Sequence record: PZ386971.1
From: a phage
Length of the DNA stretch: 64,000 bases
Direction: 5' to 3' (one strand)
The notes under the pieces were generated by a model, which had not been told where the DNA came from, searched no databases, and worked only from the letters and a program-made list of their open reading frames with translations. Each line of letters begins with the position of its first letter. Positions within the stretch are counted from its first letter, which is position 1. The translations under genes were made by a program, and so were the position numbers. Below are positions 9,048-55,446 of the stretch, piece after piece.

Positions 9048-10379
9048 TTATAGGCCAAGAGCCTTTTCAAGGTCATCAAGGTCTTCAGTGTAAAGATCGA
9101 TGTCCTCTTTCTTACTTAATTCCTTGTGCTGTGCTTCAAGGTTCTCAATCTGCTTGAGTAGGCGCTCACGGGCATCCAGAGTAATAGACGACAGAGGCAT
9201 CTTGAACAACTCGTCAAGATCACCACCAAAGTCCGGGTAGTCCTGCATGAACAGAGACTTCAGCACGTCAATCTTTTGGCGGAGATCAACACGCGTCGCC
9301 CATTCAATGAACACCGCCCGGTCACCCAGCTTGCGGATCCTGTCTGCCATGTCCTTCAACAGATACTGGCGACGGTCTTCATACCGTGACAGGCGATAAT
9401 TGAAGAACGGCAGCAACATGTCCCGCCAACCAGAATAACGATGAATGACCCCGTCTTCATCCCAGGCCGTCCAAACAGGCTTGTTGGCTGAATACAACTT
9501 GAACATCTGCTCAACCTGATTATCATCCAGCTTGGACAGTTCGCCGCGCTTAAACACAACCGTGATATCCCAGCCATCTTCCGTCGTGTCGTTGGCGTAC
9601 TCGGTGAGGATACCTGCCTTGTACAGAGGCAGCAACACCTTGGTCTCATAGGTCTTGGCAAACCAACCCACTGGGACTTCGGTGATATGCAGGGTCGTGG
9701 CATTGACGCGACGGAAGATGCCGCGACTGTATGCTCTTCCTTCCTCAGTATAGCCTGTCTCTCCTTTGAAGCCGTTCCAGTACGGTTTTAAGTCTTTCGG
9801 GTCTTCGCCACGGAGAAGCGCTCTCAGGGCATTCAGCACGGACTTAACGCAATGACACGGGGTGTCGGTGGAATATCCGGTGCCGATACCATTGATCCCA
9901 TTCACCAGGAACATGGGTAGGATGGGCAGAAAGAACTTCGGCTCCAGTCTTTCTTCACCAAGGTAGTTGTATTCCAAAATACCCTCATCCTCCTTGCGGA
10001 AGATCTTGCGGATAACGTCAGATACAGCGACGGATATGTATCGGGCAGATGAAGCATCACGCCCCATGATAGAACCAAACTGGCCATCGCGGTCAAAGTA
10101 CGGGATGTTGTTCGTGCCTGGGAACCCCTGAGCCATGTTCACGATAGTGCCGCTCATGTTCTCACCACCAGACTTGTAGTTGGTGCGAGCGGCGGCGAAC
10201 ATACCAAGGCGGTCAACAATCTCCTCCTTGTTGTACTCAAGAGCAGCGAAAAGGATCTTGCGCTGGCTTGGCTTGAGGCTGTCGATCAGCTGAGGGATTT
10301 GACGGATGCTGTTGACCACAGAAAACTGCTTATGGTCAGTGTTGACAAAGTCCGTTACAGTAATGCTCTTAGCAACCAT
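9048..10379 (-). CDS. DNA topoisomerase II medium subunit (GyrA-like; T4 gp52-like)
   Basis: YKSGGENMSGTIVNMAQ resembles GyrA active-site region; start set at ATG 10379, 1 nt after the large-subunit stop, giving 443 aa. Confidence 0.75.
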   Translation of the reverse strand: MVAKSITVTDFVNTDHKQFSVVNSIRQIPQLIDSLKPSQRKILFAALEYNKEEIVDRLGMFAAARTNYKSGGENMSGTIVNMAQGFPGTNNIPYFDRDGQFGSIMGRDASSARYISVAVSDVIRKIFRKEDEGILEYNYLGEERLEPKFFLPILPMFLVNGINGIGTGYSTDTPCHCVKSVLNALRALLRGEDPKDLKPYWNGFKGETGYTEEGRAYSRGIFRRVNATTLHITEVPVGWFAKTYETKVLLPLYKAGILTEYANDTTEDGWDITVVFKRGELSKLDDNQVEQMFKLYSANKPVWTAWDEDGVIHRYSGWRDMLLPFFNYRLSRYEDRRQYLLKDMADRIRKLGDRAVFIEWATRVDLRQKIDVLKSLFMQDYPDFGGDLDELFKMPLSSITLDARERLLKQIENLEAQHKELSKKEDIDLYTEDLDDLEKALGL

Positions 10380-10380
10380 C

Positions 10381-12291
10381 TTATTCATCCTCAGTTTCAA
10401 ACAGGCAAACATCGCTAAACCAGGTTTTACGGTAATCGGCAGCCTCATCACCGAAGCCATTCTTCAGTGACTGTTGGTAGCCATCGTCCAGCGTGACCGT
10501 CGTAGTATACGCATCTAGGTTGTTTAGAATACGTTTGAAGTCTTCAGTGCTGTTACCACCAAGACCTTTCAGATATTTCTTCTTCGTGATCTTCTTGGCA
10601 TCAGGCGTCTTCAGGAACTCCTCATACTCGGCGTTGTTCATGAACTCATGCATCACCTTACCACACCACACACGCATGTAAGGGGTGCGCAGGAGCTTCA
10701 GCCTGCCCTGACGGACATACTCCGGCCAGTAGGTGCAATACAGGGTGATCAACAACCCACGGATGTGGATGCCGTCATCGTCCGCATCGGTAGCCACAAC
10801 AGTCTGTGGGTAACGGGTGATATCAAGGGGCTGGCCTGGCACTGCGCCGCCATGGATCGTACACAGGTTCTTGAACTCTTCATTGTTCATCACCTTTGAG
10901 CGCGGGGCGTTCAGGCAGTTGATGAACTTACCACGAAGCGGGAACAACCCGATCTTCTTGGTGTCGCGGGCGTTCAGGATAGGATTGGAGGCACTATCAC
11001 CCTCTGTCAGCAACAGGGAGCATCCGCTGCGGTCACCACGGGCGGTCGCCGGGTAATACTTCTCAATCTCACGATAATCCCGCTTGCTGATGTCCTTCTT
11101 GGCCTTTTCAAACTCAGCATCATCCTGCTCATTGCGCAGGGAAGCCAGTTCTTTGCTCAGACCAGCTGTAACGAACTCAAGCGCCTTGCGGATCAGTTTA
11201 TCACTGGGCTTGTACGACGTACCGAACTGGCTGACAGGAGTGGTCATGCGCTCCTTGGTCTGGCTGTCAAAGCGCGGGTTGTTGATGTCGGCAGCGATGA
11301 ACAAGGACATGTGGTTCTTGATCATTGCTGGCTTCAGTTCGGTCTTGAACTTCTTCACCAGCTGGGGACGAATCGCTGCCACGATCTGGTCAGCAACATA
11401 ATCAACGTGAGGACCACCGATGTGGGTGGCAATAGAGTTCACGTATGATGCGTGCATGAACGTACCGGATGAAGGGGCTACAGCAACAGACCAATCCCCG
11501 GTTTCGTCAACAGCCGAACCAGCATGGAAGTAATCAACGAAGTGGCCAAAGCGGTCAATCCGGATTTGCTTCCCGTTGAGAACAATCTTCAGGCGCGGGT
11601 TACACGCAGCCACTTCAAACGCGCGGCGATAGATCATCAGCAGGTTGTTCTGGTCAAGTCCTTTGACGCCCAGACGAGCATAGTCAGGGATCCAGGCGAT
11701 GGATGTGCCAGGACTGTTCACGTTGCTGATGACTGGGTTAGATTTCTTGCTCATGTTGTCTTCAAACGTCTGAGTATAAGACTTCTTGCCGTCATTAGTC
11801 GTGACGCGGAACCATTTGGAGAACACGTTGACGAGGGACGCCCCTTCGCCATTCTGACCACCGGACTTCTGGTTGTTGTACTCTTCGTCTTCGTCGTTGA
11901 AGTTCGATCCCGCATATAGAGAGCCGAACAACATTTCAGGAAGCCACTCGTTGGTGACGCCATGCTTGACCACAGGGATACCCCCGTTGTCAGCAACGAT
12001 GATTTGACCGTTCATCGGGGAAACTGTGACGGTGATTTCCGTCAGGGATTTGCCCTCAGGGGTCTTGCTGTGGTCAACACAGTTGGTGATGATTTCATCA
12101 AACTGTTTGATCAGCGCGGGGGAGTACTCAAAGTTGTCACGGAAGATGACTTTGTCCTTAGTTGGGTCATACACCCACACCGTCCCCACAGACGAACGAA
12201 TACTGCCCAGATGACGCTCTGGGCGGAGTAGGATATGCTCAACGTGAGTGAGCTTCTTGTACTTGCGTTCAATATCAATTTTGTTGGACAT
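10381..12291 (-). CDS. DNA topoisomerase II large subunit (GyrB-like ATPase + TOPRIM; T4 gp39/gp60-like, contiguous)
   Basis: 636-aa ORF; N-terminus KLTHVEHILLRPERHLGS resembles GyrB start; single uninterrupted frame. Confidence 0.8.
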   Translation of the reverse strand: MSNKIDIERKYKKLTHVEHILLRPERHLGSIRSSVGTVWVYDPTKDKVIFRDNFEYSPALIKQFDEIITNCVDHSKTPEGKSLTEITVTVSPMNGQIIVADNGGIPVVKHGVTNEWLPEMLFGSLYAGSNFNDEDEEYNNQKSGGQNGEGASLVNVFSKWFRVTTNDGKKSYTQTFEDNMSKKSNPVISNVNSPGTSIAWIPDYARLGVKGLDQNNLLMIYRRAFEVAACNPRLKIVLNGKQIRIDRFGHFVDYFHAGSAVDETGDWSVAVAPSSGTFMHASYVNSIATHIGGPHVDYVADQIVAAIRPQLVKKFKTELKPAMIKNHMSLFIAADINNPRFDSQTKERMTTPVSQFGTSYKPSDKLIRKALEFVTAGLSKELASLRNEQDDAEFEKAKKDISKRDYREIEKYYPATARGDRSGCSLLLTEGDSASNPILNARDTKKIGLFPLRGKFINCLNAPRSKVMNNEEFKNLCTIHGGAVPGQPLDITRYPQTVVATDADDDGIHIRGLLITLYCTYWPEYVRQGRLKLLRTPYMRVWCGKVMHEFMNNAEYEEFLKTPDAKKITKKKYLKGLGGNSTEDFKRILNNLDAYTTTVTLDDGYQQSLKNGFGDEAADYRKTWFSDVCLFETEDE

Positions 12292-14315: not shown

Positions 14316-14573
14316 TCATTCCTCTTCATATTTGCCTGTCCTGAAGTTCCACTTTCGCGCATTCTTCAGGTCGAGGTCTTTGAAGATGTTTCCAAAGATC
14401 TTTTGGAAGGAGGTCTGCTCTTGTTCTTCCTCAAGATCCTTGGGCTTCTTGACAGGCTCTTTCACCATACCGCCTTCGGGTTTCCCCACATCGGCGGTCG
14501 TGGTTCCAGGGGCTGCTGAGTCTTCAAGGAAGTCCTGGAAGCCTTTCATGATTAGACCGCAGCCATTTCGCAA
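14316..14573 (-). CDS. hypothetical acidic protein
   Basis: 85-aa ORF followed by terminator. Confidence 0.4.
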   Translation of the reverse strand: MRNGCGLIMKGFQDFLEDSAAPGTTTADVGKPEGGMVKEPVKKPKDLEEEQEQTSFQKIFGNIFKDLDLKNARKWNFRTGKYEEE

Positions 14574-15373
14574 CGAGTAGAGGTCACAGAGTGGCCGTCA
14601 GCGTCTTCAACAACACACCAGTACTCACCCTCGTTTTCGGCAGCAACTGCAGTGATAACCAGGCTCGCAGTTGCAGCAGTGGGGTTAGTGCCAGCATCGA
14701 TCACCTCACCTTCACCACCAGGGACATCAGAGAAGTACCAAGTATGTGTGTATGGGGTAGTGCCGCCTGTAGCAGCGATGGTGAAGGTTGCGGATTCACC
14801 TGTTGTTACATCCTGAGAAGCAGCCAGATCGGTAGACAGAGACAGAGCGCCAGCCACTGTGATGACGGTAGAGTCAGTGTGGTCACCTTCGATGGTTACA
14901 CCGTAAACAGTCACTGAACCCGGTGCCAGCAGCTTGAATTTACCACCACCGATGTGCACAGCTTTGGTCAGATCGCCAGAGTACCAGTTGACACCCTGGT
15001 AGGTCGCGTTCTCCGGAGCGACGACCGCCTTCAGTTCAACAACCTGACCGACTTCACCATTAGCAGTTTCAGGGGTGATGGTCAGGCCAGTGGTCAGCAC
15101 AGCGCTTGGGTCGTGGATTTCATAAGACAGCTGGAAGCCAACGGGCTTGGTTGGATCCACTTTGGTGACGCCATCGGCCTGCAAATTGCTCTTGGTCAGC
15201 AGTGCATCCAGACCTTTACACTCAGTCAGGATCTCGTCTGGGTCTTGGTTAAGACTGGTCTTTTCCCAACCACGAGCAGTACCTGTTACAGTGTGAAGAC
15301 GCTCAGTTTCCGGTTTGTTGCGAACAACTTCCGGTGCTACTAATACAGTGATCGTTGGCATGGTTTCCTCCAC
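14552..15373 (-). CDS. Ig-like domain protein (Big_2-like plus I-set-like domain)
   Basis: VAPENATYQGVNWYSGD...VTVYGVTIEGD resembles Big_2; C-terminal GEYWCVVEDADGHS resembles an Ig-fold core. Confidence 0.6.
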   Translation of the reverse strand: MEETMPTITVLVAPEVVRNKPETERLHTVTGTARGWEKTSLNQDPDEILTECKGLDALLTKSNLQADGVTKVDPTKPVGFQLSYEIHDPSAVLTTGLTITPETANGEVGQVVELKAVVAPENATYQGVNWYSGDLTKAVHIGGGKFKLLAPGSVTVYGVTIEGDHTDSTVITVAGALSLSTDLAASQDVTTGESATFTIAATGGTTPYTHTWYFSDVPGGEGEVIDAGTNPTAATASLVITAVAAENEGEYWCVVEDADGHSVTSTRCEMAAV

Positions 15374-16373: not shown

Positions 16374-16400
16374 AACTGAAAAGGAGGCCGGAGCCTCCTT
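16374..16400 (-). terminator. intrinsic terminator downstream of rIIB-like gene
   Basis: aaggaggc-cgga-gcctcctt hairpin; minus strand continues with TTTT. Confidence 0.5.
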
Positions 16401-16416: not shown

Positions 16417-17982
16417 TTACTTGTACAGGCCTGTCACGTCAATGGACTTGTGCTGGCGGTTGTACTCGGCGGTGTAATCATCCAACACCAGGTATTCACA
16501 GCAGCGGATTTTGCTTGAACCAAAATCATCGGTGACCGACACGATGTCACGCGGGTTCAGCTTACAGCGAACGACACGCTGTCCCACAGAACCGAAACAC
16601 TCCTTCAGGTAGGCCAGGGAGCACACATGCAGACCATATGAACACAGTTCGGAGTTGTTGTCGTTCACGAATGAGCGAGCCATGCGCACGATAGTGCCTG
16701 GGGCGTTGCTGATCGTGTTGCTATGCTTGTCCATGTAGTTGCCGCGCACCGATTTGTAGAGGATGATGTCACCATCTTCGTCAATTTCGATGTCAGAGTA
16801 CGCCATGAACTCGTAGATGCGCCCAGACTGAACCAGAGAAGCTGACGGGTTCTGGAACATTTTGTCCATAAACTTCGCCATGCGGTCCAGGTTGTGGAAG
16901 TCACCCTTCAGCATCAGCGCCAGTACACGCTTGGCGATGGATGTGCCTGTGATGTCATGACCGGACCAGCGGACACGGTTGTCAGACACGTCTACCAGAC
17001 CAGCAGCGTACTTCGCGATGGCTTCACGAGGACGCATCAGCGAGTATGCCAGCTTCACGTCTTTGTCTTTGATCGCCTGTACGATGCGGTCATAGGCCGG
17101 GTGTGAAGTGGTGATCGTTTCCGGCTTGCCGTCAATCGCGATAACAACGCTGTCAGGCAGAATCAGGATCTGGTGTTCGTTCAGGAACACGTCCAGGTCT
17201 TTCGCGCCGAAGTCCTGCTTGGTCTTCTTATCATCAGCCACTTCTTCAACGTCTTTGACAGCGACGGCGAATTCTACAGAAGACAGAGCCAGACGCAGGG
17301 TGCGACCGAGGATGCCATCAAAGTAACCAACACGGCGACGGGCATCCAAGGATCCACGGATAGGATAGGTTTCCCCGTCAACCACAACGCTGATTTCAAC
17401 GTTGCTCGGAACTTTGTCCGCACCTTCTGACAGTGCCACAGAAATTTCTGCCATCTCGCCGATAGCTTCAACATCGAAAGCGCAACTATCACCTTCCACA
17501 GGAGTCAATTCAGACTTTTCAAAGAAAGCCCCTTTGAAATTGCCGTCGTTAGTGAGACACAGATACTTGTTGTGGTTCGGCAGATATGCCCCAACATACC
17601 ATTCTGTGCCATCTTTGTCTTTGGCCGTGCCGCCCGGTTGGACCTCGAATACTTCTTGTTCTTCCGGCTTGATAGGAGAGATCACAGTTACCTTGTTTTT
17701 CTCCTCGGTAATCCGGACCAACAGAGCGCGAGCAATGGTCTTGGCGGACACACCGTACACCTTGGCCAAGAATGCATTGCTGACATTACCTGCCGCCGAA
17801 TCCCTTTGGATATTGGCGATCTGATCTGTTGTCAGGGATTTCAGCGAAGTAGGGTCAACACCAATTTCCGTGTCGGAAACACGTTGTACAGTCGAGCGGG
17901 GTATGCCCAACAGAGTAGCAATTGCGCTCTGGCTTTTGCCTTCCTTCAAATACTTCAGGATCTTTTCGTCAATCTTGTTCAT
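16417..17982 (-). CDS. rIIB-like protein (N-terminal HTH)
   Basis: Directly downstream of the rIIA-like gene; N-terminal HTH-like segments; start set at MNKIDEK methionine, 32 nt after the rIIA stop. Confidence 0.5.
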   Translation of the reverse strand: MNKIDEKILKYLKEGKSQSAIATLLGIPRSTVQRVSDTEIGVDPTSLKSLTTDQIANIQRDSAAGNVSNAFLAKVYGVSAKTIARALLVRITEEKNKVTVISPIKPEEQEVFEVQPGGTAKDKDGTEWYVGAYLPNHNKYLCLTNDGNFKGAFFEKSELTPVEGDSCAFDVEAIGEMAEISVALSEGADKVPSNVEISVVVDGETYPIRGSLDARRRVGYFDGILGRTLRLALSSVEFAVAVKDVEEVADDKKTKQDFGAKDLDVFLNEHQILILPDSVVIAIDGKPETITTSHPAYDRIVQAIKDKDVKLAYSLMRPREAIAKYAAGLVDVSDNRVRWSGHDITGTSIAKRVLALMLKGDFHNLDRMAKFMDKMFQNPSASLVQSGRIYEFMAYSDIEIDEDGDIILYKSVRGNYMDKHSNTISNAPGTIVRMARSFVNDNNSELCSYGLHVCSLAYLKECFGSVGQRVVRCKLNPRDIVSVTDDFGSSKIRCCEYLVLDDYTAEYNRQHKSIDVTGLYK

Positions 17983-18013
17983 CTTGTAGTTCCCACGTTG
18001 GTTAACAGGACTA

Positions 18014-20770
18014 TTATGCCCTGATAATGGAATTTGAAATAACGTCCAAGTAATCCGAAGATTTTTCAATCGGGTTCAGGGCGCTTGGTTTGTAATTCTC
18101 TTTCAAGAACCGGACAACACGATGACGCTCGATGGTCAATCGGTTTTCCCGCCTTGCTTTCAATGACGGAGTCCTCGATATATCAAACGGTGTAAATCCA
18201 TGAAACCGCAACACATCCGAAGCGCATTCAAAGATCTGTAGCATCTGATGTTCTGAACGGAAGATCTTTTCGTCACGCTCGTTGGCGTACAAATTCACGT
18301 TAAGAGAATGTATTGTGTCCTGGAAATGGCTAAATCGACGCTTGTCATTGATTGAAACCGGGGCTTTCGCCAGGCTTTGGTAATGACGTACAGTCTGCTC
18401 ATCCAAGATATCGTCCACAACTTTCATTAACTTGTTGTAACGGCTGACCAATTTGCCATAACGATCGTCTTCAACATCACCAAACGCCTGATGAACCAGA
18501 TGGCTCCCGTATTTTAATCGATCCGCCCCAAGGCGCATGCGGCGGTATGATTCCAGTATGCGCTTGGCGCTATCGCGCTCCATCATAGGCTTCACGTTTT
18601 CCAACATGATCTTCAGGATTTCATCGATCGGTATGAAGACCTCTGGGAACTTCTTCATCATTGGCACGGATTTACGACGAGCCAAGAAGATTCGGTTGTG
18701 AACGTTCAACATATCGCTGATGTACACTGGCTTGCCTTCATCGTCGACACTGACTGCGTGCTCATACAGAGATTTACGAATACCCCGCGCCGCCGCAGTC
18801 GTCAACGTTCTGTCCATCACCTGATGGATACACGCATGGCCAGACACCTCAATATAGACGATGCGCTCGCCCTTGTTGATGATATCTGAGATCTGGTCGC
18901 CCGTTAGTTCTTCATACTGGTATATGTCGAAGTTGCTGCGCGTGAACGGAAACAGGCCGGGGTCTTTGGTGACCGGGGGCGTGACATACGACAGTTCGTT
19001 CATGAACTTGACTTCAGCAGGCTCCAACACCGCACTCAGCCAATCGACGAACTTGTCGGCGAAGCACAGATAATCAACCGTCGTTTCTTCTTTACCAATC
19101 CAAGTTTCAAAGAAATCATAGAGAGCCTGAGAATTCTTGAACGCAGGGTTGTCCTTAGATTGGTTGCGCTTGGTGACATAGGATGTGTTCGGTTTGGCCA
19201 CGATGACTATCGTCCCTGTATCTTTCAGCTGCTTGATCTTCAGGTTACGAGCACGAACACTATCTTCGATCACCACAGTAACATGCTGGCCGCGATCAAT
19301 CCACTTCTGGATTTCTGAAATGGTCAAATTACTGGACTCACCCCAGTCATAGAAGATCTCCATAGAGAACGGTGATGACAGCTCATTGAACGGCGCGGTA
19401 TGGTCATAATCGCGATCAATCTCAACAGGCAGCGGGTAACGGTAATATGAATCATGAAAGCGCTTGTCGGCCGGGTATTCCTTTTCAACCATCTTGCGGA
19501 ACCCACTGCCGAACATTTCACTCAGTTTTACCTTCTCCATATACAGGGCAAGAGGACCACGCTTACACGCCAGCTCCAGGTCACGCATCTTTTCTGTCAA
19601 GATTGCATTGGCGGTGCCCTTAAACTCCTCAGAGAGCGTCTCACGCGTGAATTCGTCATATGAAAGGTCTTCACGCGACGGTGGTACGTTCAGCGATCCA
19701 AGTTCGAAGAACGTATAGGACGATGGAAACTTGCTCATGATGGAAGCAGTGTCCGGGTCCAGCTGGTCCAGGTCAATCGGGTACGACACGCCACCCATTA
19801 CAGCATAATGGGTGTTCCCCTGGCCTTTCGGCTGGATGTACGTGTTGTTGACCTTGAAATCATAACTGATATCTTCCCAGCTGAAGCGGTATGAAGCGTT
19901 CTCAACAATTGGACGTTGTTCAGGGCGCATAACACGACCAAGACGGACCAGTTCATCGGAGAATGCAGAGAAACGAGCGTTCTTCACCGGGATCTTCACC
20001 GTCATACCGTTGAACTCATCGGTGTCTTCCGGTTTAGGATCACGGGTTTCAAGATCTTTGGTGATCAGATCAACAGTCGGGATGCGCTTGGCATTCAGGT
20101 ACATCAGGAAGCGATGGAGTTTACCGTCCATGCGGCTTTCCACAGTGAACGAATCCGATACCGCAAATGGTGATTTGGAGCCAAGACCGAATGCCCCAAT
20201 CTGATCATCATCTTCTTCCTTCGTACTGTGGAAGAGAGTGGTATACAACCCAGGCGTACGAATGATTTCACCATCTTCGCGACGGAACACTAGACCACCA
20301 TTATAGAACGCAGGCACGCCGATGACCTCAGCTGAGTCAGGGATCTCGTCTTCCTTGACCACCATGTTGCCTTCCAGCAGCACTTCATCTTCCTGCGCTG
20401 GGATAGGCTCGCCAATGATCTTCTCGAGTGGTAGACCGATGCCGTAATCACGGATTTCCAGCCATGGCTCAAAGTCATCAGGCAGATGCACAACAACCTG
20501 CTTACCCTTCGGTGCAAGGTATTTGCTATGGCGGGCAGGAGGCGGAGTGAGAGGCGCGTAGTGGGATGCTACCATACGGTGCATACGATCACGCATGCCA
20601 TGGGAGTCGATGGCGTTACAGACGGTTTCGCGCAGGGCTGCAGCCTCTTTGTAACGATACAATGATGAGAACAGAGTCTCAAACATCTTATCGTTCATCT
20701 TCACGTTGAACGCCTGCCCCTGAATGGAAGACGACGAGCGGATAAAGTGCTCGGACTTGCGCATTTTCAT
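18014..20770 (-). CDS. rIIA-like protein (GHKL/Bergerat ATPase domain)
   Basis: GHKL-type motifs ETVCNAIDSHG and GAFGLGSKSPF in N-terminal third of a 918-aa ORF. Confidence 0.6.
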   Translation of the reverse strand: MKMRKSEHFIRSSSSIQGQAFNVKMNDKMFETLFSSLYRYKEAAALRETVCNAIDSHGMRDRMHRMVASHYAPLTPPPARHSKYLAPKGKQVVVHLPDDFEPWLEIRDYGIGLPLEKIIGEPIPAQEDEVLLEGNMVVKEDEIPDSAEVIGVPAFYNGGLVFRREDGEIIRTPGLYTTLFHSTKEEDDDQIGAFGLGSKSPFAVSDSFTVESRMDGKLHRFLMYLNAKRIPTVDLITKDLETRDPKPEDTDEFNGMTVKIPVKNARFSAFSDELVRLGRVMRPEQRPIVENASYRFSWEDISYDFKVNNTYIQPKGQGNTHYAVMGGVSYPIDLDQLDPDTASIMSKFPSSYTFFELGSLNVPPSREDLSYDEFTRETLSEEFKGTANAILTEKMRDLELACKRGPLALYMEKVKLSEMFGSGFRKMVEKEYPADKRFHDSYYRYPLPVEIDRDYDHTAPFNELSSPFSMEIFYDWGESSNLTISEIQKWIDRGQHVTVVIEDSVRARNLKIKQLKDTGTIVIVAKPNTSYVTKRNQSKDNPAFKNSQALYDFFETWIGKEETTVDYLCFADKFVDWLSAVLEPAEVKFMNELSYVTPPVTKDPGLFPFTRSNFDIYQYEELTGDQISDIINKGERIVYIEVSGHACIHQVMDRTLTTAAARGIRKSLYEHAVSVDDEGKPVYISDMLNVHNRIFLARRKSVPMMKKFPEVFIPIDEILKIMLENVKPMMERDSAKRILESYRRMRLGADRLKYGSHLVHQAFGDVEDDRYGKLVSRYNKLMKVVDDILDEQTVRHYQSLAKAPVSINDKRRFSHFQDTIHSLNVNLYANERDEKIFRSEHQMLQIFECASDVLRFHGFTPFDISRTPSLKARRENRLTIERHRVVRFLKENYKPSALNPIEKSSDYLDVISNSIIRA

Positions 20771-20844
20771 AGTATAGAAATCCTATCAAGTCAAAGGGAA
20801 ACATATTGGTTGAGTGGGTATAATACGGTGGGCGTCTTCAATTG

Positions 20845-20872
20845 AAAAAGCCCTCGGCTGAGGGCTTTGTTC
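20845..20872. terminator. intrinsic terminator hairpin (bidirectional)
   Basis: agccctc-ggct-gagggct hairpin with A-run upstream and TTTGTT downstream. Confidence 0.5.
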
Positions 20873-20875
20873 AGA

Positions 20876-21223
20876 TCAATCTTCGGTGGCAAATCGCGCC
20901 TGGAAGTCGAATGTTGGGCGCTGGGCACCAGGTTCCAACTTCTCTTCCAGATAGCCGATGATGGTGCGGGTGACCGACACAGGCTCTTTGCGTGGGTTGA
21001 CTGGAGTAGCCAGCGCGATGATAGAGGACTGCTGCTCTTCTACACGCGTGTATTCCACATTGAAGTGATAGCGAGAACCAAAGGCCGCCACTTCGACTTC
21101 AACGATTTGTAGATCTTTCAGGTCAGTGCTGCTCAGGGTTCCCACGTTCAACTGTGAGCGCAGGTGCTCAACAATGTTGGAGTACACATACTGTGGGGTG
21201 ATCAGCTGTTCAATAGAACTCAT
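20876..21223 (-). CDS. hypothetical protein
   Basis: 115-aa ORF. Confidence 0.45.
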   Translation of the reverse strand: MSSIEQLITPQYVYSNIVEHLRSQLNVGTLSSTDLKDLQIVEVEVAAFGSRYHFNVEYTRVEEQQSSIIALATPVNPRKEPVSVTRTIIGYLEEKLEPGAQRPTFDFQARFATED

Positions 21224-36655: not shown

Positions 36656-36744
36656 TGGCGGAAGGTGAAGGATTCGAACCTTCGGGGGCTAAAAGCCCCA
36701 CTCGATTAGCAGTCGAGTCCCTTAAACCTCTCGGGCAACCTTCC
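36656..36744 (-). tRNA. tRNA-Ser (anticodon GCU), class II with long variable arm
   Basis: Hand-folded cloverleaf: acceptor GGAAGGT/ACCTTCC, anticodon loop CTGCTAA, T-arm GAAGG-TTCGAAT-CCTTC, encoded CCA. Confidence 0.75.
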
Positions 36745-36964
36745 AATTTGGACGGGCTTCACACCCGATTGAGCATTTGATCTGCTGTAGCCCAACTCCC
36801 CGCGCTTCTCAGCGCCGATTGGTTAACTGGCGACCAGTGCCTTCTGGTTCGATCTCCTGGAACTTTACAGGCTTTGCGCCCGACCATTTCTGGAAGTTGG
36901 GGCATCGTTTCCGATGTGGAGTCACCCCATTTTATACACAGCTGGCTGCAACGCTTACTGTGTT

Positions 36965-37048
36965 TGGTGTGAGTGGATGGATTCGAACCACCGCGCTGTT
37001 ACGGGGAGATTTACAGTCTCCTGCATTCGACCGCTCTGCCACACTCAC
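36965..37048 (-). tRNA. tRNA-Tyr (anticodon GUA), class II
   Basis: Acceptor GTGAGTG/CACTCAC, anticodon loop CTGTAAA, T-loop GGTTCGAATCC, long variable arm, CCA encoded. Confidence 0.7.
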
Positions 37049-37305
37049 ATTTGGTCTGCCGCTGCGTGCTGGGCCACGCTCGAGGACATCGGCCATCCTT
37101 CCTCAGCTAATCCACGCAGCGGTAGATTTGTATCAGAGTGTCCGGTGTAGCAACCCGTGAGGTGCGCACTACTGTAGCCTCTACACTCTGAATTTGGTGG
37201 GCGTTACTATCGTCGTCTTCGGATTCCGTTCGGCTATTGGACAGAGGCTTGGAGCTTGTCGGTCGCGTACTTTATGCCTATTCACTTTCGTTCACACCCA
37301 TTGTC

Positions 37306-37381
37306 TGGCGACGATGGCAGGACTTGAACCTGCGACATACGGTTTAACAGACCGCCGTTCTACCGACTGAACTACATCGTC
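37306..37381 (-). tRNA. tRNA-Asn (anticodon GUU)
   Basis: 76 nt; acceptor GACGATG/CATCGTC, anticodon loop CTGTTAA, T-arm GCAGG-TTCAAGT-CCTGC, CCA encoded. Confidence 0.75.
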
Positions 37382-37552
37382 TTGCAAATCACTATACCAT
37401 ATAAAGTTTATTGAACAAACATTTATTTTACAACAAACTGTATTGGCGGGGTCTGAGGCTTTTCACCTCACCTGCTGGGTTTGGCCGCCCAGCCGTTCTC
37501 TATGAGGATTCACTGTCCGGACAGCTATCCATTAAACTATCGCCCCTCAATA

Positions 37553-37629
37553 TGGTGATCCTGATTGGGTTTGAACCAATGACCAATGAATTATGAGTTC
37601 ACTGCTCTAACCGACTGAGCTACAGGACC
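37553..37629 (-). tRNA. tRNA with CAU anticodon (elongator Met or Ile-lysidine type)
   Basis: 77 nt; acceptor GGTCCTG/CAGGATC with G1-C72 pair, anticodon loop CTCATAA, T-arm ATTGG-TTCAAAC-CCAAT, CCA encoded. Confidence 0.7.
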
Positions 37630-44417: not shown

Positions 44418-44452
44418 CCTAGATGAAACGAACACATTTAGGGGTATTTGAA

Positions 44453-47400
44453 ATGGCTAATAAACCAACACAGCCTGTTTTCCCTCTCGGTCTGGTGGCT
44501 GAAGAGCAGTCTACTTTGGCTGGTGTCGTCAACAAGGGTACGATTGAGCATGGACCAGATGCTGTCCTGACTTTACCCGAGGGTAATGCCAGCGCAGGAC
44601 TCCCGTCTTCCGTTCGCTACAATGCCGACTCCGACGAATTTGAGGGCTTCTATGAAAATGGTGGATGGTTGCCGCTGGGTGGCGGTGGTATCCGCTGGGA
44701 AGTCCTTCCGCATGCCTCTACGGTAATGCTCACTGAAGGGCGAGGCTATCTCATTAATAATACCACAGGGGCATCTACAGTGGTTCTCCCTTCCCCTACG
44801 CGTATTGGGGATTCCGTTACTATTTGTGATGCTTATGGGAAATTTGCCACTTACCCATTGACCGTGTCTCCTTCTGGAAATAATTTGTATGGCTCCACTG
44901 AAGACATGGCTATAACAACTGATAACGTATCAGCAACGTTCACTTGGTCTGGGCCTGAACAAGGTTGGATTATTACATCCGGCGTCGGTCTTGGCCAAGG
45001 CCGTGTCTACAGTCGTGAAATCTTTACAAAAATTTTGGCGTCTGAAACAAGTACTGTCACTCTCAATACTCCACCAACAATCGTGGACGTGTATGCTGAC
45101 GGAAAACGCCTTGCGGAATCCAAATATTCACTAGATGGGAATGTAATCACTTTCAGTCCTTCTTTGCCAGCCAGCACAGAACTTCAGGTGATTGAATATA
45201 CTCCTATTCAATTGGGTAATGGCGGTGGTTCTAGTTCTTCTACGATTACTTGGGTCTATAATGGGGGTTCAGCGATTGGCGGTGAAACCGAAATCACGTT
45301 GGACGTCGTTGTTGATGATGTTCCGGCCATTGATATAAACGGAAGTCGTCAGTATAAAAATCTGGGATTCACATTCGATCCATTAACCAGTAAAATCACT
45401 CTGGCGCAAGAACTGGAACCAGAAGATGAAGTTGTTGTAATTATCAATGGAACACCAAACATCTATAATCAAATTGATCATACTTTGCGGGAAGTGGCTC
45501 GTGTAACCAATGTTAAAGATACAGAGGTCGTTTATTTTAGTGTTGGTGCTGTGCTAAGCGGGTATAAAGTTATCTATGATAAAGTAACACAGAGATCATA
45601 TTTTATTCCAGAGCTACCGACTGGAACCACGGCAGTCAGCCTTAGTTCTTCGGCTGTACTTGTGCATTCTGCTGGTAGTGTTGATCTGGGCGCATTAGCC
45701 GTATCTCGTGAGGAGTATGTGACCTTACCTGGTTCATTCGATACAGGTGTAACTGTTAATACCAAGAATGAGTTGGTTGTGAGTAACGATATTAAATATC
45801 GTTGGGATGGTTCTGTACCCAAAGTAGTCCCTCCAGAATCTACCCCATTGGGTACAGGAGGTGTTGGTCCAGGGGCATGGCTTGTAGTTGGTGTTGTTGG
45901 ATTAGAGCAACGTTTAGCCTCCTGGAAAGGTTCTTCTCTTATTGATTCCGGTAGTCTGTCTCTTTACAAAAAGAGCGGTGTATTCGGTGATGGTGGGAAT
46001 GTATCCGATAAATATCAGGTTGTTCTACATTCAGATGGGTTCTGGTACAAGTACAATGGGACACTACCTGTTAGTTATGGTGCTGCCCCAGACTCTTCTT
46101 GGACTAACGTTGGTAAGCTAACAGGGTTTAATGAACACTCACCTGAGAATTTTGGTGCAATCCCCAATGACCCTAGTTTTGACTGTTTACCTGCTATAAA
46201 ACTAGCTATAGCCACAGGTACATTAAATCTGAATGGGAATTCTACCTACCACGTAACGGATGAGGTTGTTATACCTTCTTACTTACGTGGGAATCTAAAC
46301 GGGGCAACAATTAAAGCAATTGGCTCCGTATGGCCTACGTTAAAAGCTGTTGTACGCGTTAGTAAATTTCCTGTCGGTACAGCAACAGTGGATGTGGCTA
46401 ATACAGAGAATCAAGTGCGAGGATTACGCTTAATCGGTAGCTTAAACGTAGACTGTGCAGATATTGCATCATATGGTTTTTATGCACGTCTTCTGTGTGC
46501 AGAATCTGAGATGGGTAGCATCTATGCATATAATGCTAATAGATATGGCATTGTAATGTTTGCTTGCTGGTATTTTCAAATGGGCACTCTCCATGCAAAC
46601 AACTGTGCAAGGGGTATGGCATTAGGTTATTCAACAGAAGGTGAGCAAGGGGATACCTATGTGAATGCTACACACTTCCCTCACATTAGTGCATGGGGTA
46701 CTGATAAGTCTACGGGACTAGGTTATGACCCAATCACGGATGATGCGAGTAAATATACAATAGGTGCTGGTATTATCTTAGGTCGTGGTTTGTCTACCAG
46801 TGTTGGTGTGATTTGCTCTGAGAATACGGCAGGTGCTGGGGTAGTAACAATGGACCCTGCTGCGTGGGACATTGGGGTCATGTACTGTGAGGGTAATAGT
46901 AAAGACTTTACTCAAGAGGGTGAACCCAAGGTGTCATTGCTGTCATCCAAGGCCAACAGTGAAAGTCATACGCTTACCATCTCCACACTCCACCTTTCCG
47001 CAGGTTGTGGCATTTTAACCAGAAGCAATCAAGAGCGTGTGCTAATCAGAAGTCTATATCGCTTTGATAACGCAAAAACCTTCCACTCTTACTGCACAGC
47101 AGACACAGTAGAGGTTGGTAGCAGCAACTACTATGTACTTAACGGGCATAATTACAATGCACCTGCTGCACTTATTAAGGAACCGCTCAATGTAGACTTT
47201 GTGCGTTCAGGGTTGACTTTAAGTGAGTGGACATCTACAGTTATCGGTCATTTTGCTGGTAGTACAGCAGAACAACAGCTTTATGTTAAGCTCCCAGCAA
47301 GTCCCAGCGGCCTAGATTTACAGATAGATAGTGAGGATGGGACGGAATATATCACTGTAACTGGTACAGATTTTAAAGTCTCTCTAACTAAGAAAAGATT

Positions 47401-47506
47401 GCCTAGTAAACTGTATGAGATAAGGATTGGTGGGGTGTCTACAGTAGCTGTTACCGATTGTTCTATTCTAGTCAGAAGTAAAAAAGGTGATTGGTATTAC
47501 TGGTAG
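44453..47506 (+). CDS. tailspike protein A (N-terminal anchor region, shared ~130-aa module, beta-helix-like C-terminal part)
   Basis: Start set at MANKPTQ downstream of promoter and leader hairpin; shared module at about aa 375-510. Confidence 0.65.
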   Translation: MANKPTQPVFPLGLVAEEQSTLAGVVNKGTIEHGPDAVLTLPEGNASAGLPSSVRYNADSDEFEGFYENGGWLPLGGGGIRWEVLPHASTVMLTEGRGYLINNTTGASTVVLPSPTRIGDSVTICDAYGKFATYPLTVSPSGNNLYGSTEDMAITTDNVSATFTWSGPEQGWIITSGVGLGQGRVYSREIFTKILASETSTVTLNTPPTIVDVYADGKRLAESKYSLDGNVITFSPSLPASTELQVIEYTPIQLGNGGGSSSSTITWVYNGGSAIGGETEITLDVVVDDVPAIDINGSRQYKNLGFTFDPLTSKITLAQELEPEDEVVVIINGTPNIYNQIDHTLREVARVTNVKDTEVVYFSVGAVLSGYKVIYDKVTQRSYFIPELPTGTTAVSLSSSAVLVHSAGSVDLGALAVSREEYVTLPGSFDTGVTVNTKNELVVSNDIKYRWDGSVPKVVPPESTPLGTGGVGPGAWLVVGVVGLEQRLASWKGSSLIDSGSLSLYKKSGVFGDGGNVSDKYQVVLHSDGFWYKYNGTLPVSYGAAPDSSWTNVGKLTGFNEHSPENFGAIPNDPSFDCLPAIKLAIATGTLNLNGNSTYHVTDEVVIPSYLRGNLNGATIKAIGSVWPTLKAVVRVSKFPVGTATVDVANTENQVRGLRLIGSLNVDCADIASYGFYARLLCAESEMGSIYAYNANRYGIVMFACWYFQMGTLHANNCARGMALGYSTEGEQGDTYVNATHFPHISAWGTDKSTGLGYDPITDDASKYTIGAGIILGRGLSTSVGVICSENTAGAGVVTMDPAAWDIGVMYCEGNSKDFTQEGEPKVSLLSSKANSESHTLTISTLHLSAGCGILTRSNQERVLIRSLYRFDNAKTFHSYCTADTVEVGSSNYYVLNGHNYNAPAALIKEPLNVDFVRSGLTLSEWTSTVIGHFAGSTAEQQLYVKLPASPSGLDLQIDSEDGTEYITVTGTDFKVSLTKKRLPSKLYEIRIGGVSTVAVTDCSILVRSKKGDWYYW

Positions 47507-47513
47507 TATAATA

Positions 47514-47542
47514 AAAAGCCCCCAATTTTGGGGGCTTTTATT
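47514..47542 (+). terminator. intrinsic terminator after tailspike A
   Basis: gccccc-aatttt-gggggc hairpin then TTTTATT. Confidence 0.6.
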
Positions 47543-47570
47543 ATATAGAGTTTACTGTTTTCATTACCCT
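47536..47570. repeat. conserved ~35-bp element downstream of tailspike terminators (copy 1)
   Basis: ttttatatagagtttactgttttcattaccct; near-identical copy at 55206-55240. Confidence 0.5.
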
Positions 47571-47762
47571 GATTGATAATGCTGTTGGCTCTCTCGGGTT
47601 GTCATCAAACGGGTATAAGAACTTTATAGGTGATATCAATGATGGGTCAGCGTATTTTTATTTCGCCAACATAGATGGATCAAGAATATCGGGGTCGTCT
47701 GTTTATGATGGGTGGGGTGATGTTGGTATACATTTTGAAATGTGTCTGGAATAGGAGTGTCA

Positions 47763-47857
47763 AACCCCGCTTTGGCGGGGTTCTTATTATACCTTTGTTC
47801 ATAAATTTGATTAGTTCAGACTAAATACTCCATATTGGTCATCCTTTATGGGGTATT
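47763..47857. repeat. repeated cassette-boundary module (hairpin + late promoter + leader hairpin), copy 1
   Basis: About 95 bp, roughly 85% identical by eye to 50741-50832, immediately upstream of tailspike B. Confidence 0.6.
47821..47829 (+). promoter_or_regulatory. candidate late promoter (CTAAATAct)
   Basis: Within repeated module, 32 nt upstream of ATG 47861. Confidence 0.4.
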
Positions 47858-47860
47858 ATC

Positions 47861-50290
47861 ATGATTTCTCAATTCAATCAACCACGCGGCTCCACTTCCA
47901 TAGAAGTTAACAAACAATCTATCGCTCGAAATTTCGGTGTCAAAGAAGACGAAGTCGTTTATTTCACTGCTGGTATTGATCTCAGTGGATTTAAAGTAAT
48001 TTATAATGAGTCTACCCAACGGGCTTATTCTCTTCCTTCAGGTATTGTTTCAGGAACGACTGCGATAAGTCTGGATAAAAGAGCTATCCTCACTCATTCA
48101 GCGGGTTCTGTTGATCTTGGGGAATTAGCAGTAAGCCGCGAAGAATACGTAACCTTACCTGGTTCATTTGATACTGGTGTAACTGTTAATACTAAGAATG
48201 AATTAGTTGTCTTTACCGATGGTAAGTATCGCTGGGATGGGGCACTGCCTAAAGAAGTGCCTGCTGGTTCAACCCCTACATCAACCGGTGGTGTTGGAAC
48301 AGGTGCATGGGTTAGTGTTGGTGATGCGAGTTTGAGGTCAATAGCTCAATACAGAGCCAATACCATTGAAGATTTAAAATCATTGCCATTTGCGGTTGGA
48401 GATATTGTTAATGTCGCTGGGTATTATGATGTTTTTGATGGGGCACAGCATTACCGAGTGATTAGTGGTACAGATGATGGAACAGGGGTTCAGCTCAATA
48501 ATGGTTTGTGGGCAAATATTATCATTAATGGCGATGCTTGTGTAGATTGGTTTGGCGCTAAAGGTGATGGTGTTGCAGATGACTGGTGGGCAATCAATAA
48601 AGCTATTAACGCCTCGCTCTCTACCGATTATCAGGGTGGTTGGTGGGAGACGTCAAGTAGAAACCCTAAATTTAAAGTTAGACTTAGTAGACGCTCTTAC
48701 AGAATCACTAAACAGATTTTACTACCCCCTTACATAGAGTTTTATGGTATGGGTTCGCGCTGGTATTTTTCGGGTGATAATAATTCTCGCTTAATCCCTG
48801 ATTTTGATAATCCGTTGCAATTCGCTGTGAAATCTGCTAGCTATATTGTTGAAACCGGTGAACTAGCACCTGAGGGGTGGTATTCTGGGGTGGTTTGGGT
48901 TGACCCAAAAAAACTAACGACTTGTCATGGTATTAAAACTTATGGATATAGCATCGAACCAACAAAACAAATTTTAGGCGGTATAAGACTGATAGCGAGT
49001 CCAATTTCTCATGTATACGATATATTCATAACAAATGTTGATTTTGGAGTTTTACTGAATTGTTCATGGGTGAGTAAGGTTGACGTTAAAACTCATCATA
49101 ATAAATGCGGGGTTATGTCTAGTCATGATGGTAATAACACTCACGTGGATGGTTATTTTACAGGGACAGAAATCAAACCGCTTGATGGTAATCCTTACCT
49201 CAACCCAATAGAGTCTTTAGACTCTACAACAGGGCTCCAAGACCAATCTATATCTGACCCAGACAGTAAAATAGGTGTGATTTTTTATTGGTCACAGGGG
49301 TCAACAAGTACGAATATGACGTGTGAGGGTAACACTATTTCGTTGGCTGTGGCTAAGGGTGGTGCTGATGTAAGGTGTTTATACTCAGAACGTAATTCAG
49401 ATTGTACATTTACTGGGTACAGTTCACTAGTTACAATTGGTGAAATAACTGGCATTGGTGACGGTGGAACTTTTGAGCTTGGTGTAAATAATACTATTTC
49501 GTTAGACAAAGACACTCAGTATGGTGTCGCTAAACGATTTAAGTACGTGAGCGAGTGGGGTAATAAGCTGTTTATGCCCTCTAGCTGGAAAGAATACACC
49601 AAAGGTTGTTTAGTTGAAGGGTTTGATTATAGCGAAATTTTTGTAGATGCGATAAATGGAGATGACACCAATGTTGGCTCCAGTCTTCACCCTGTGAAAA
49701 CTTTGGAGAGAGCTCTAACGCTTGTGAATTCAGTGTATACTACATCTGACTTGCTAAGCTCAGTGCCGAGGGATAGAGTAATAAAGTTAGTAGGCTCAGC
49801 AACATACTACCCAGACGGACAGCATAGGTTCGTGGGCGGCTCGTTAAAAATTACAAAAGCTGATAACTCACGACCGACTGTTAATTTATCAAAACCAATC
49901 CGATTTAACGACACATCCCTAGTATTTGAGGAAGTAAATTTAGTGCGACCAACAGATGACCACGGGAATAATGAGAATGGCGCAATTTTCCTTGAGGATG
50001 GGTGTAATGAAGTCAGATTGAAAAACTGCGATCTAAGTCTACAAAAATTCAGCTTCTTATATCCTACTTGGGGCTTTGCTGGAATATGTACCTTGGTGTT
50101 AAACGGGGTTAGTGTTACTGGTGATTCAACAACAAGAATGATACAAACAGCTGATGGATATCATGATTTGCACTTGTTTAATGTAATTAGCTACGAGACA
50201 ACTTACACTGGAGGAATAGAGTCAAGACCAGATAAAGGCTATGATATACCAGCAGATAGACGTGGTCATATATTGGGTGTATCAATATAA
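47861..50290 (+). CDS. tailspike protein B (shared N-terminal module + pectate-lyase-like beta-helix)
   Basis: Shared module at aa 20-150; WFGAKGDGVADDWWAINKAI resembles the beta-helix depolymerase entry motif. Confidence 0.65.
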   Translation: MISQFNQPRGSTSIEVNKQSIARNFGVKEDEVVYFTAGIDLSGFKVIYNESTQRAYSLPSGIVSGTTAISLDKRAILTHSAGSVDLGELAVSREEYVTLPGSFDTGVTVNTKNELVVFTDGKYRWDGALPKEVPAGSTPTSTGGVGTGAWVSVGDASLRSIAQYRANTIEDLKSLPFAVGDIVNVAGYYDVFDGAQHYRVISGTDDGTGVQLNNGLWANIIINGDACVDWFGAKGDGVADDWWAINKAINASLSTDYQGGWWETSSRNPKFKVRLSRRSYRITKQILLPPYIEFYGMGSRWYFSGDNNSRLIPDFDNPLQFAVKSASYIVETGELAPEGWYSGVVWVDPKKLTTCHGIKTYGYSIEPTKQILGGIRLIASPISHVYDIFITNVDFGVLLNCSWVSKVDVKTHHNKCGVMSSHDGNNTHVDGYFTGTEIKPLDGNPYLNPIESLDSTTGLQDQSISDPDSKIGVIFYWSQGSTSTNMTCEGNTISLAVAKGGADVRCLYSERNSDCTFTGYSSLVTIGEITGIGDGGTFELGVNNTISLDKDTQYGVAKRFKYVSEWGNKLFMPSSWKEYTKGCLVEGFDYSEIFVDAINGDDTNVGSSLHPVKTLERALTLVNSVYTTSDLLSSVPRDRVIKLVGSATYYPDGQHRFVGGSLKITKADNSRPTVNLSKPIRFNDTSLVFEEVNLVRPTDDHGNNENGAIFLEDGCNEVRLKNCDLSLQKFSFLYPTWGFAGICTLVLNGVSVTGDSTTRMIQTADGYHDLHLFNVISYETTYTGGIESRPDKGYDIPADRRGHILGVSI

Positions 50291-50740
50291 ATAATTGATA
50301 TTATGCTTCATGGTGATTGTGGGTGATTCACCCACGATTACTTTTAGGTACTACAGTTGATAATTCAGATTGATACATTGGATTGGCAGGTGCGTGTAAT
50401 ACTGCACTTGAATTTTGATACATAAATCCGGCACCCTCCCTCACCCTCAACGCGCCCAATTGCCCCCATAGGAGGCTCATTACCTCCTTGTGGGCTTTGT
50501 TGTTTTTGTGGCTGCTGTTGCTGACTACATTCTATGTATGGATGTATCTCATCATACTAAGCATTATCTAAGAGCCATCCTATGATACGACCCCATTGGG
50601 ATTCCTAACTTCACAACTACGGTAATATTATGAATTAATCAGGTGAACTGCTCCTAGTCAGACTGGAGGAACGATTGAAGACTCTGTTTGATAATCAGGC
50701 AAGGGATAGATAGGATCGTGGTTTTGGAGAGTAAAATCAA

Positions 50741-50832
50741 AACCCCTCTTCGGCGGGTTCTTGTTATACCTTTGTTCATAAATTTATTAGTTCAGACTAA
50801 ATACCCCATATTGGCAAATCCTCTATGGGGTA
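50741..50832. repeat. repeated cassette-boundary module, copy 2
   Basis: Near-duplicate of 47763-47857 immediately upstream of tailspike C. Confidence 0.6.
50797..50805 (+). promoter_or_regulatory. candidate late promoter (CTAAATAcc)
   Basis: Followed by leader hairpin taccccata...tatggggta and ATG 50841. Confidence 0.4.
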
Positions 50833-50840
50833 TCTTCAAA

Positions 50841-53177: not shown

Positions 53178-53228
53178 TTACACAGCCCCCTTAACTGGGG
53201 GCTACCATAGAAAAACAATGAGGTTTAT

Positions 53229-55240: not shown

Positions 55241-55404
55241 TCGATACAGCAGTTAAGGTAATAGTCTGACCTGATATATTAAACATACCTAATTGAATAC
55301 CATCTACCATGAATGGCAGAGGTCTCGAATCCATGACCATAACCACAGAAAGATAATCAAAGCCCCTTCGGGCTTATTTCTTTCTATTCCTCGGTTGGTT
55401 GTAT

Positions 55405-55413
55405 ACTAAATAT
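55405..55413 (+). promoter_or_regulatory. candidate late promoter (CTAAATAtc)
   Basis: About 34 nt upstream of ATG 55447. Confidence 0.35.
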
Positions 55414-55446
55414 CTCTATAATGGCACCTATCGATGGAGCATCAAA

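Follow-up and report, generated by a model that had tools for sequence, protein, structure and literature searches.

Nucleotides 16417-20770 of the phage sequence record PZ386971.1 raise the question of whether the two adjacent genes found there are a counterpart of the rIIA-rIIB pair of phage T4 and, if so, why the second protein is so much longer than T4 rIIB. The region lies within a 64,000-nucleotide (nt) stretch of DNA (the window), and an earlier note, made from the letters of the window alone, had proposed such a pair with an enlarged rIIB. The results make it highly probable that the locus is the rIIA-rIIB pair of the Ackermannviridae, comprising a GHKL-type ATPase (rIIA) and a modular, long rIIB, with a counter-defence role that would follow from homology. 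According to the list of open reading frames (ORFs), the region is occupied by two co-oriented genes, rIIA then rIIB (lengths in amino acids, aa):

18014-20770, minus strand: rIIA gene, 918 aa (ATG at 20770, TAA at 18016-18014).
16417-17982, minus strand: rIIB gene, 521 aa (ATG at 17982, TAA at 16419-16417).

Plus-strand ORFs within the region are at most 150 aa long and antisense to conserved coding sequence. The rIIB ORF opens mechanically at a TTG codon (nt 18069), which would give a protein of 550 aa, and the earlier note had left the length at 521-550 aa. Only the lower value stands. Translation from the TTG was rejected, as it would overlap rIIA by 56 nt and is unused by homologues. The annotation of the near-identical phage LHE287 uses ATG 17982, every rIIB homologue of 521-548 aa opens with the M-x-x-x-E-K consensus encoded there, and a spacer of 31 nt then separates the rIIA stop codon from the rIIB ATG in place of the 56-nt overlap. 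For these reasons, ATG 17982 is taken as the start of rIIB.

Over the 4354-bp region, Escherichia phages YX22 and LHE287 are 98.0% and 97.7% identical at the DNA level, while Shigella phage Ag3 stands at 93% and Dickeya phage PP35 at 89%. The four belong to the Ackermannviridae, with genomes of 150-160 kb, and most such records carry RIIA/RIIB annotation. The same annotation is given to these genes in dozens of Ag3/Limestone-like genomes ('RIIA protein' being the name of rIIA in LHE287, Ag3 and others), and a protein in public data (P0047) is 100% identical to the window rIIA. A paper on Vi01-like phages counts RIIA and RIIB (Vi01 gp1, gp2) as core genes of the Ackermannviridae (PMC10892097). 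The pairs of Vi01 (gp1/gp2), Ag3 (orf00001/orf00002), YX22, LHE287 and 4HA11 agree with that of the window in genes, order, lengths (918/521 aa) and architecture, and relatives at 93-98% DNA identity over the 4354 bp differ from it by a few percent sequence divergence. By its sequence similarities, the window is assigned to an Ag3/Limestone-like (Vi01/Ag3-type) phage of the Ackermannviridae, and its remaining content fits this family (two topoisomerase II subunits, a family B DNA polymerase, four tailspike genes, a 1628-aa gene and four tRNAs). The pair consists of the already-annotated rIIA and rIIB genes of the Ackermannviridae; the identification made in the earlier note is correct but ordinary, and was already known.

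Profile searches, in which a lack of significant similarity would have refuted the earlier note, returned extensive similarity of both proteins to the rII families, and its interpretation is supported. rIIA matches PHROG 3661 ('RIIA') from residue 1 to 918 over 917 profile positions (E = 0), and PHROG 612, the family of T4 rIIA, at 2.3e-78 in a match that ends at aa 549. The BLASTP and PHROG queries for rIIB were a 522-aa translation with one extra N-terminal residue (numbering in the structure model is, similarly, the true numbering plus one). Residues 2-522 of this query match positions 1-530 of the 530 in PHROG 3803 ('RIIB') at 2.8e-278, and the gene lies where rIIB was expected, after rIIA on the same strand. 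Being collinear with PHROG 3803 over its full length, the window protein is a long rIIB of the Ackermannviridae type, including the additional domains described below. Alignment to the T4 reference proteins (taken from NC_000866), which the earlier note had suggested as a check, gave significant matches for both (BLASTP). rIIA aa 17-417 aligns with T4 rIIA aa 16-327 (25% identity, E = 7e-29), while rIIB aligns in two blocks, aa 280-508 with T4 rIIB aa 88-311 (35% identity, E = 5e-47) and aa 47-101 with T4 rIIB aa 3-57 (35% identity, E = 1e-4). T4 rIIA reciprocally matches PHROG 3661 at 2.5e-47, T4 rIIB matches the rIIB PHROG families reciprocally, and PF26926 is present on all rIIB homologues in precomputed annotation. 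Given E-values of 7e-29 and 5e-47, it is very unlikely that the alignments to T4 are artefacts. The gene order in T4 is also the same, rIIA then rIIB on one strand.

The earlier note had recognised rIIA by its GHKL ATPase motifs, and these are borne out by the homologues. Two parts of the protein are distinguished:

19985-20698, minus strand: N-terminal GHKL (Bergerat-fold) ATPase domain of rIIA, about aa 25-262.
18017-19123, minus strand: C-terminal part of rIIA that is not alignable to T4 rIIA, about aa 550-918.

Motif I (ExxxNxxD) is formed by E48/N52/D55, motif II (DxGxG) by D108-x-G110-x-G112 and motif III (GxxGxG) by G192-x-x-G195-x-G197, followed by K199; these residues vary little or not at all among 49 homologues, the most distant of which are only about 20% identical. 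In a PDB profile search, the rIIA family profile matched the N-domains of TRAP1/HtpG (E = 8e-5), in an alignment that included motifs I and II. The AlphaFold (AF2) model of rIIA (predicted local distance difference test, pLDDT, 84.6) matched full-length HtpG/TRAP1 at 3e-11 to 1e-9 (Foldseek), with an overlap that reaches past the N-domain, and GyrB, ParE and MutL at 1e-5 to 5e-7. Single-sequence PDB searches of rIIA and rIIB returned nothing meaningful, so that the GHKL link of rIIA is detectable only through profiles and predicted structure. A Pfam search of the window rIIA found no family even at E = 1, probably due to two insertions in the ATPase domain, and an NCBIfam search gave just sub-threshold sacsin and HtpG fragments. 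Precomputed HATPase_c matches of Pfam are available for several rIIA homologues, and T4 rIIA itself matches HATPase_c_3 just under the threshold (E = 1.6e-4). A GHKL domain has already been assigned to rIIA in the literature (PMC7824862).

From its motifs and model, rIIA is classed as a GHKL ATPase with all ATP-binding motifs intact and a predicted fold like that of Hsp90/HtpG, GyrB and MutL. Hsp90/HtpG, GyrB/ParE and MutL have Bergerat-fold motifs as in rIIA, together with a second 'transducer' domain, at an identity of only 10-17%; TM (template modelling)-scores are low due to domain arrangement, and rIIA is without chaperone, topoisomerase or mismatch-repair partner domains. The likeness is one of mechanism class, not of family membership. 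T4 rIIA (725 aa) has a homologous GHKL N-terminal half; the window protein differs from T4 rIIA by two lineage-specific insertions within the ATPase domain (at about aa 57-83 and 123-172, visible as gaps when the two are aligned by BLASTP) and by a C-terminal part that is longer and unrelated. Beyond aa 417, no significant BLASTP match to T4 rIIA was found. The C-terminal part is modelled as alpha/beta followed by a long all-helical region (aa 715-917), and its failure to align agrees with the 'highly variable C-terminal domain' described for rIIA (PMC7824862).

At 521 aa, the window rIIB is much longer than the 312-aa T4 protein (roughly 310 aa in the earlier note, which had suggested extra domains). 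Extra domains were indeed found, and the protein is divided as follows:

17848-17982, minus strand: first helix-turn-helix module of rIIB (HTH1), aa 1-45; an extra HTH absent from T4 rIIB.
17719-17847, minus strand: second helix-turn-helix module (HTH2), aa 46-88; counterpart of the single T4 rIIB HTH.
17170-17718, minus strand: lineage-specific insert, aa 89-271; stands in for a T4 linker of about 30 aa.
16420-17169, minus strand: conserved C-terminal core, aa 272-521; common to T4 rIIB.

The HTH-like segments that had been noticed near the N-terminus are recognised by Pfam, residues 7-37 as HTH_38 (6.4e-7) and HTH_23 (9.7e-7), and residues 68-88 as HTH_36 (2.7e-4). HTH1 also matches the PAI subdomain of Sleeping Beauty transposase (1.3e-3, PDB profile search). 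When aligned to each other, HTH1 and HTH2 gave a probability of 96% and E = 1.2e-9 (hhalign), by which the two modules are taken to be homologous; self-BLAST found no internal repeats in rIIB. T4 rIIB has a single HTH (aa 7-50), and shares with the window protein this module and the core, including the CSxGLHVC motif; the second HTH and a folded insert of about 180 aa are additions. Together, these two elements make up the extra 210 aa or so of the window rIIB relative to T4.

The core can be divided into an N-terminal part, from aa 272, and a highly conserved C-terminal part that extends to aa 521. Two motifs, C447-S-x-G-L-H452-V-C454 and K491-x-R493-x-C495-x-Y497, are invariant and common to T4, divergent and distant metagenomic rIIBs. 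They contain a cluster of three cysteines and one histidine (C447, H452, C454, C495), which may bind metal or take part in catalysis; the confidence of the model drops precisely at aa 446-448, and no description of the cluster was met in the rII literature examined. Mean identity to the window protein within the rIIB family is 0.80 in the C-terminal core, about 0.60 in the HTH modules and 0.30-0.45 in the insert. A Foldseek search of PDB with the whole rIIB model (AF2; pLDDT 82, predicted template modelling score, pTM, 0.74) gave no match at E <= 0.001, and hence no solved structural relative was detected for the core. Pfam searches of four separate rIIB segments returned only noise (PBSX_XtrA, FCD, DUF5736; E 0.037-0.096). 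Overall, rIIB is a modular protein, with two related HTHs, a family-specific insert of about 180 aa and a conserved core that carries an invariant Cys/His cluster.

The insert, which is the stretch between the two BLASTP blocks to T4 rIIB, is the fastest-evolving and least conserved part of the protein. In the AF2 model, it consists of a six-stranded beta module (module 1), a 16-residue helix, a five-stranded beta module (module 2) and a linker, in that order; pLDDT values are about 70-95 except in the linker, where they are about 58-74. No sequence relative of the insert was found in Pfam or PDB. Its best Foldseek matches in PDB are tandem Tudor/Agenet/KOW/SH3-like barrels, at weak E-values (5e-3 to 0.1) and target TM-scores of 0.27-0.40, in a comparison made with the whole rIIB model. 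Only the five-strand topology of module 2 fits this class of barrel, and the matches do no more than suggest a small beta-barrel of the SH3/Tudor kind. A 'V-x-V-D-G-x-x-Y' resemblance between modules, seen by eye and by BLAST, was rejected as a sign of duplication: by hhalign, modules 1 and 2 show no relationship to each other, nor does either to the start of the core (probability <1%).

Searches for the insert in other sequences returned a single type of protein. By tblastn, it is present in 282 phage records, in all of which at least 80% of it is covered; all are of a size typical of the Ackermannviridae (124-164 kb among those listed), and the listed phages infect Salmonella, Klebsiella, Escherichia, Dickeya, Serratia, Shigella and Erwinia. 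Among 1.84 billion representative proteins (phmmer), there were five true matches, all to rIIB proteins of this type or fragments of them. A sixth match, the sole one outside rIIB (P0170, 1850 aa, six stretches), was rejected as a repetitive protein with a pairwise E of 0.13. As far as these sequence searches reach, the insert is restricted to Ackermannviridae rIIB, and no other type of protein among the 1.84e9 representatives appears to carry it.

The word 'enlarged' in the earlier note is apt in relation to T4, but not in relation to the rIIB family. Viral rIIB predicted structures that match the model (BFVD) range from 273 to 644 aa, with about 240 common aligned columns that correspond to the core, and further PHROG rIIB profiles have 543 (PHROG 11221) and 552 positions (PHROG 2886, N4-like). 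Lengths of 521-548 aa recur in about 40 protein clusters and in the 282 phage records, and the long rIIB is the standard architecture in the Ackermannviridae. Other long rIIBs, such as those of Vibrio and Aeromonas phages (411-644 aa), PHROG 2886, PHROG 11221 and a fusion protein of phage RB43, have the core of about 240 aa and usually an N-terminal HTH, as here, but what they carry in addition shows no detectable relation to the insert of the Ackermannviridae, and in the N4-like rIIB (PHROG 2886) the core lies mid-protein with a C-terminal extension. The general plan of rIIB is an HTH, a variable middle and a conserved core, with T4 near the short end and the Ackermannviridae forming one stable variant.

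That the two genes belong together is indicated by a natural rIIA-rIIB fusion of 1049 aa in Escherichia phage RB43 (BFVD Q56C47). The existence of this fusion accounts for the finding that rIIA matches one end and rIIB the other end of PHROG 609 (1055 positions, labelled RIIB), and both observations support the view that rIIA and rIIB work together. Three candidate signals, of which the hairpins were read from the sequence and then scored by RNA fold energy and z, flank the pair:

20845-20867, minus strand: terminator-like hairpin with T-run that ends the upstream gene at 20876-21223; -16.4 kcal/mol, z -5.0.
20820-20848, minus strand: sigma-70-like promoter candidate, TTTTCA-17-TATTAT, 50 nt upstream of the rIIA ATG; 9/12 consensus matches.
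16379-16400, minus strand: terminator-like hairpin (AAGGAGGC-TCCG-GCCTCCTT) with T-run, 17 nt past the rIIB stop; -14.9 kcal/mol, z -4.2.

The upstream hairpin comes immediately before the promoter candidate. The two genes form a conserved unit that has a promoter-like site ahead of it and is bracketed by terminator-like hairpins; these hairpins and the 31-nt spacer between the genes also speak for the two acting as a pair.

As to function, rIIA and rIIB of T4 are dispensable on ordinary hosts and needed on cells that carry lambda RexAB, which aborts infection through membrane depolarisation. Knock-down of rII pairs that are less than 40% identical to one another (T4, MM02, EdH4, SUSP1 and N4) sensitises all of these phages to lambda RexAB (PMC11879866), and T6 is listed with the same five as showing a need for rII on hosts with RexAB-type exclusion. 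RIIB of T6 is toxic alone, and is enough to trigger a CARD/gasdermin defence system (PMC10312443). DNA binding by RexA does not track exclusion (PMC11077077). By homology with these phages, the pair in the window is best read as a counter-defence module against Rex-type abortive infection. As in T4, T6, N4, SUSP1 and others, rIIA and rIIB would cooperate at an early stage of infection in a counter-defence that is needed only under some conditions, and would let the phage grow in cells with RexAB-type abortive-infection systems of resident prophages; rIIB might itself be a target detected by other defence systems. At the molecular level, rIIB may bind DNA through its HTH pair while rIIA supplies ATP-driven clamping or remodelling, and the two proteins may mask or remodel a signal of infection by which depolarisation of the membrane would otherwise be set off. 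The insert of rIIB, which evolves fast, might provide a lineage-specific interaction surface.

Several observations weigh against this proposal. The candidate promoter is weak, with 9 such sites found against 6.0 expected by chance, which is not above the chance rate. T4 rII proteins have classically been reported in membrane fractions, whereas no transmembrane helix was predicted in the window rIIA or rIIB; the maximum 19-residue hydropathy (0.93 for rIIA, 1.42 for rIIB) reveals no strongly hydrophobic segment either. Since neither protein has a transmembrane segment, membrane association, if any, would be peripheral. The fold assignment of the insert is weak, as no PDB match reached E <= 0.001. 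In the literature found, no Ackermannviridae rII pair had been tested against defence systems, and function is assigned by homology alone.

Other accounts of the locus deal differently with the same domains. rIIB could be chiefly a phage transcription factor that tunes phage genes to host physiology, in which case rIIA would be a separate counter-defence ATPase and the Rex phenotype indirect. Iyer et al. class the T4 rIIB orthologues as specific transcription factors (PMC7824862), and rIIB does possess two bona fide transposase/paired-like HTH modules. Conservation, however, peaks in the C-terminal core (0.80) and not in the HTHs (about 0.60), rIIA and rIIB mutants have the same phenotype, and both genes are depleted under RexAB. 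A natural fusion of the two genes exists, and RIIB alone is toxic and activates a defence system without any phage genome; a primarily transcriptional role is considered unlikely. The names 'lysis inhibitor' and 'membrane integrity protector' in GenBank and PHROG imply instead that the pair acts directly at the inner membrane, blocking ion leakage without touching DNA. This would suit the classical reports of the T4 proteins in membrane fractions and the way in which RexAB works, by membrane depolarisation, but it is quite improbable for two proteins in which no transmembrane or strongly hydrophobic segment is found and in which the recognisable domains, a GHKL ATPase and HTHs, are not membrane modules.

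The length of rIIB could also be questioned, if two genes had been merged by a sequencing or frameshift error, or if an ORF had been wrongly extended. The mechanical ORF list does hold the 550-aa TTG version that overlaps rIIA, yet the 521-aa frame is open throughout and covers PHROG 3803 (530 positions) over its whole length, proteins of 521-548 aa are met repeatedly, in about 40 clusters and 282 phage records, and AF2 folds the whole chain confidently, insert included. An artefact is scarcely credible, and is already refuted by the conservation data. A bolder extension is that the duplicated HTH and the two fast-evolving beta modules might be more than a passive linker and form a specificity module that retargets the rII system, either by recognising the hypermodified DNA of this family or by engaging or evading a defence other than lambda RexAB, while in parallel the Cys/His cluster might be the metal or catalytic site that explains the action of rIIB. 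This extension is put forward as a long shot.

The practical value of these results is small, in that existing annotation is confirmed, and the 312-aa rIIB of T4 is seen to lie near the short end of a family with a freely varying middle. What is added is a map of the domains that make up the long rIIB (HTH, HTH, two beta modules, core), the restriction of the insert to the Ackermannviridae and the Cys/His cluster of the core. The domain boundaries and the Cys/His residues offer concrete mutagenesis targets for work on the rII mechanism, although no new question is opened by them.

Downstream of rIIB, on the same strand and at a distance of about 4 kb, are the genes for two topoisomerase II subunits (nt 9048-12291; 470 and 636 aa). 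In T4, by contrast, topoisomerase gene 60 closely precedes rIIA, from which it is separated by nothing but the small rIIA.1 ORF. The mechanical ORFs of the two subunits overlap by 80 nt, for which reason the 470-aa gene probably begins downstream of its mechanical start. Between rIIB and the topoisomerase genes lies a gene of 273 aa (nt 14552-15373) that is named 'tail fiber protein' in related phages (Vi01 gp3). Its location among early/DNA-metabolism genes is an odd place for a virion component, and the protein sequence resembles tandem immunoglobulin (Ig)-like repeats.

Elsewhere in the window, four minus-strand tRNA genes (Ser-GCT, Tyr-GTA, Asn-GTT and Met-CAT) are located at nt 36656-37629. 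Four consecutive tailspike genes (nt 44423-55145) specify proteins of 1027, 809, 829 and 638 aa, of which PHROG tail families match the N-terminal parts only. The guanine + cytosine (GC) content of this region is 41-45%, compared with about 50% elsewhere in the window, and the region is consistent with receptor-binding modules that are exchanged horizontally, as is usual in the Ackermannviridae. Directly downstream of the tailspikes is a gene of 1628 aa with a TTG start (nt 55399-60285), which matches only PHROG 358 and PHROG 877 (unknown function), in several stretches.

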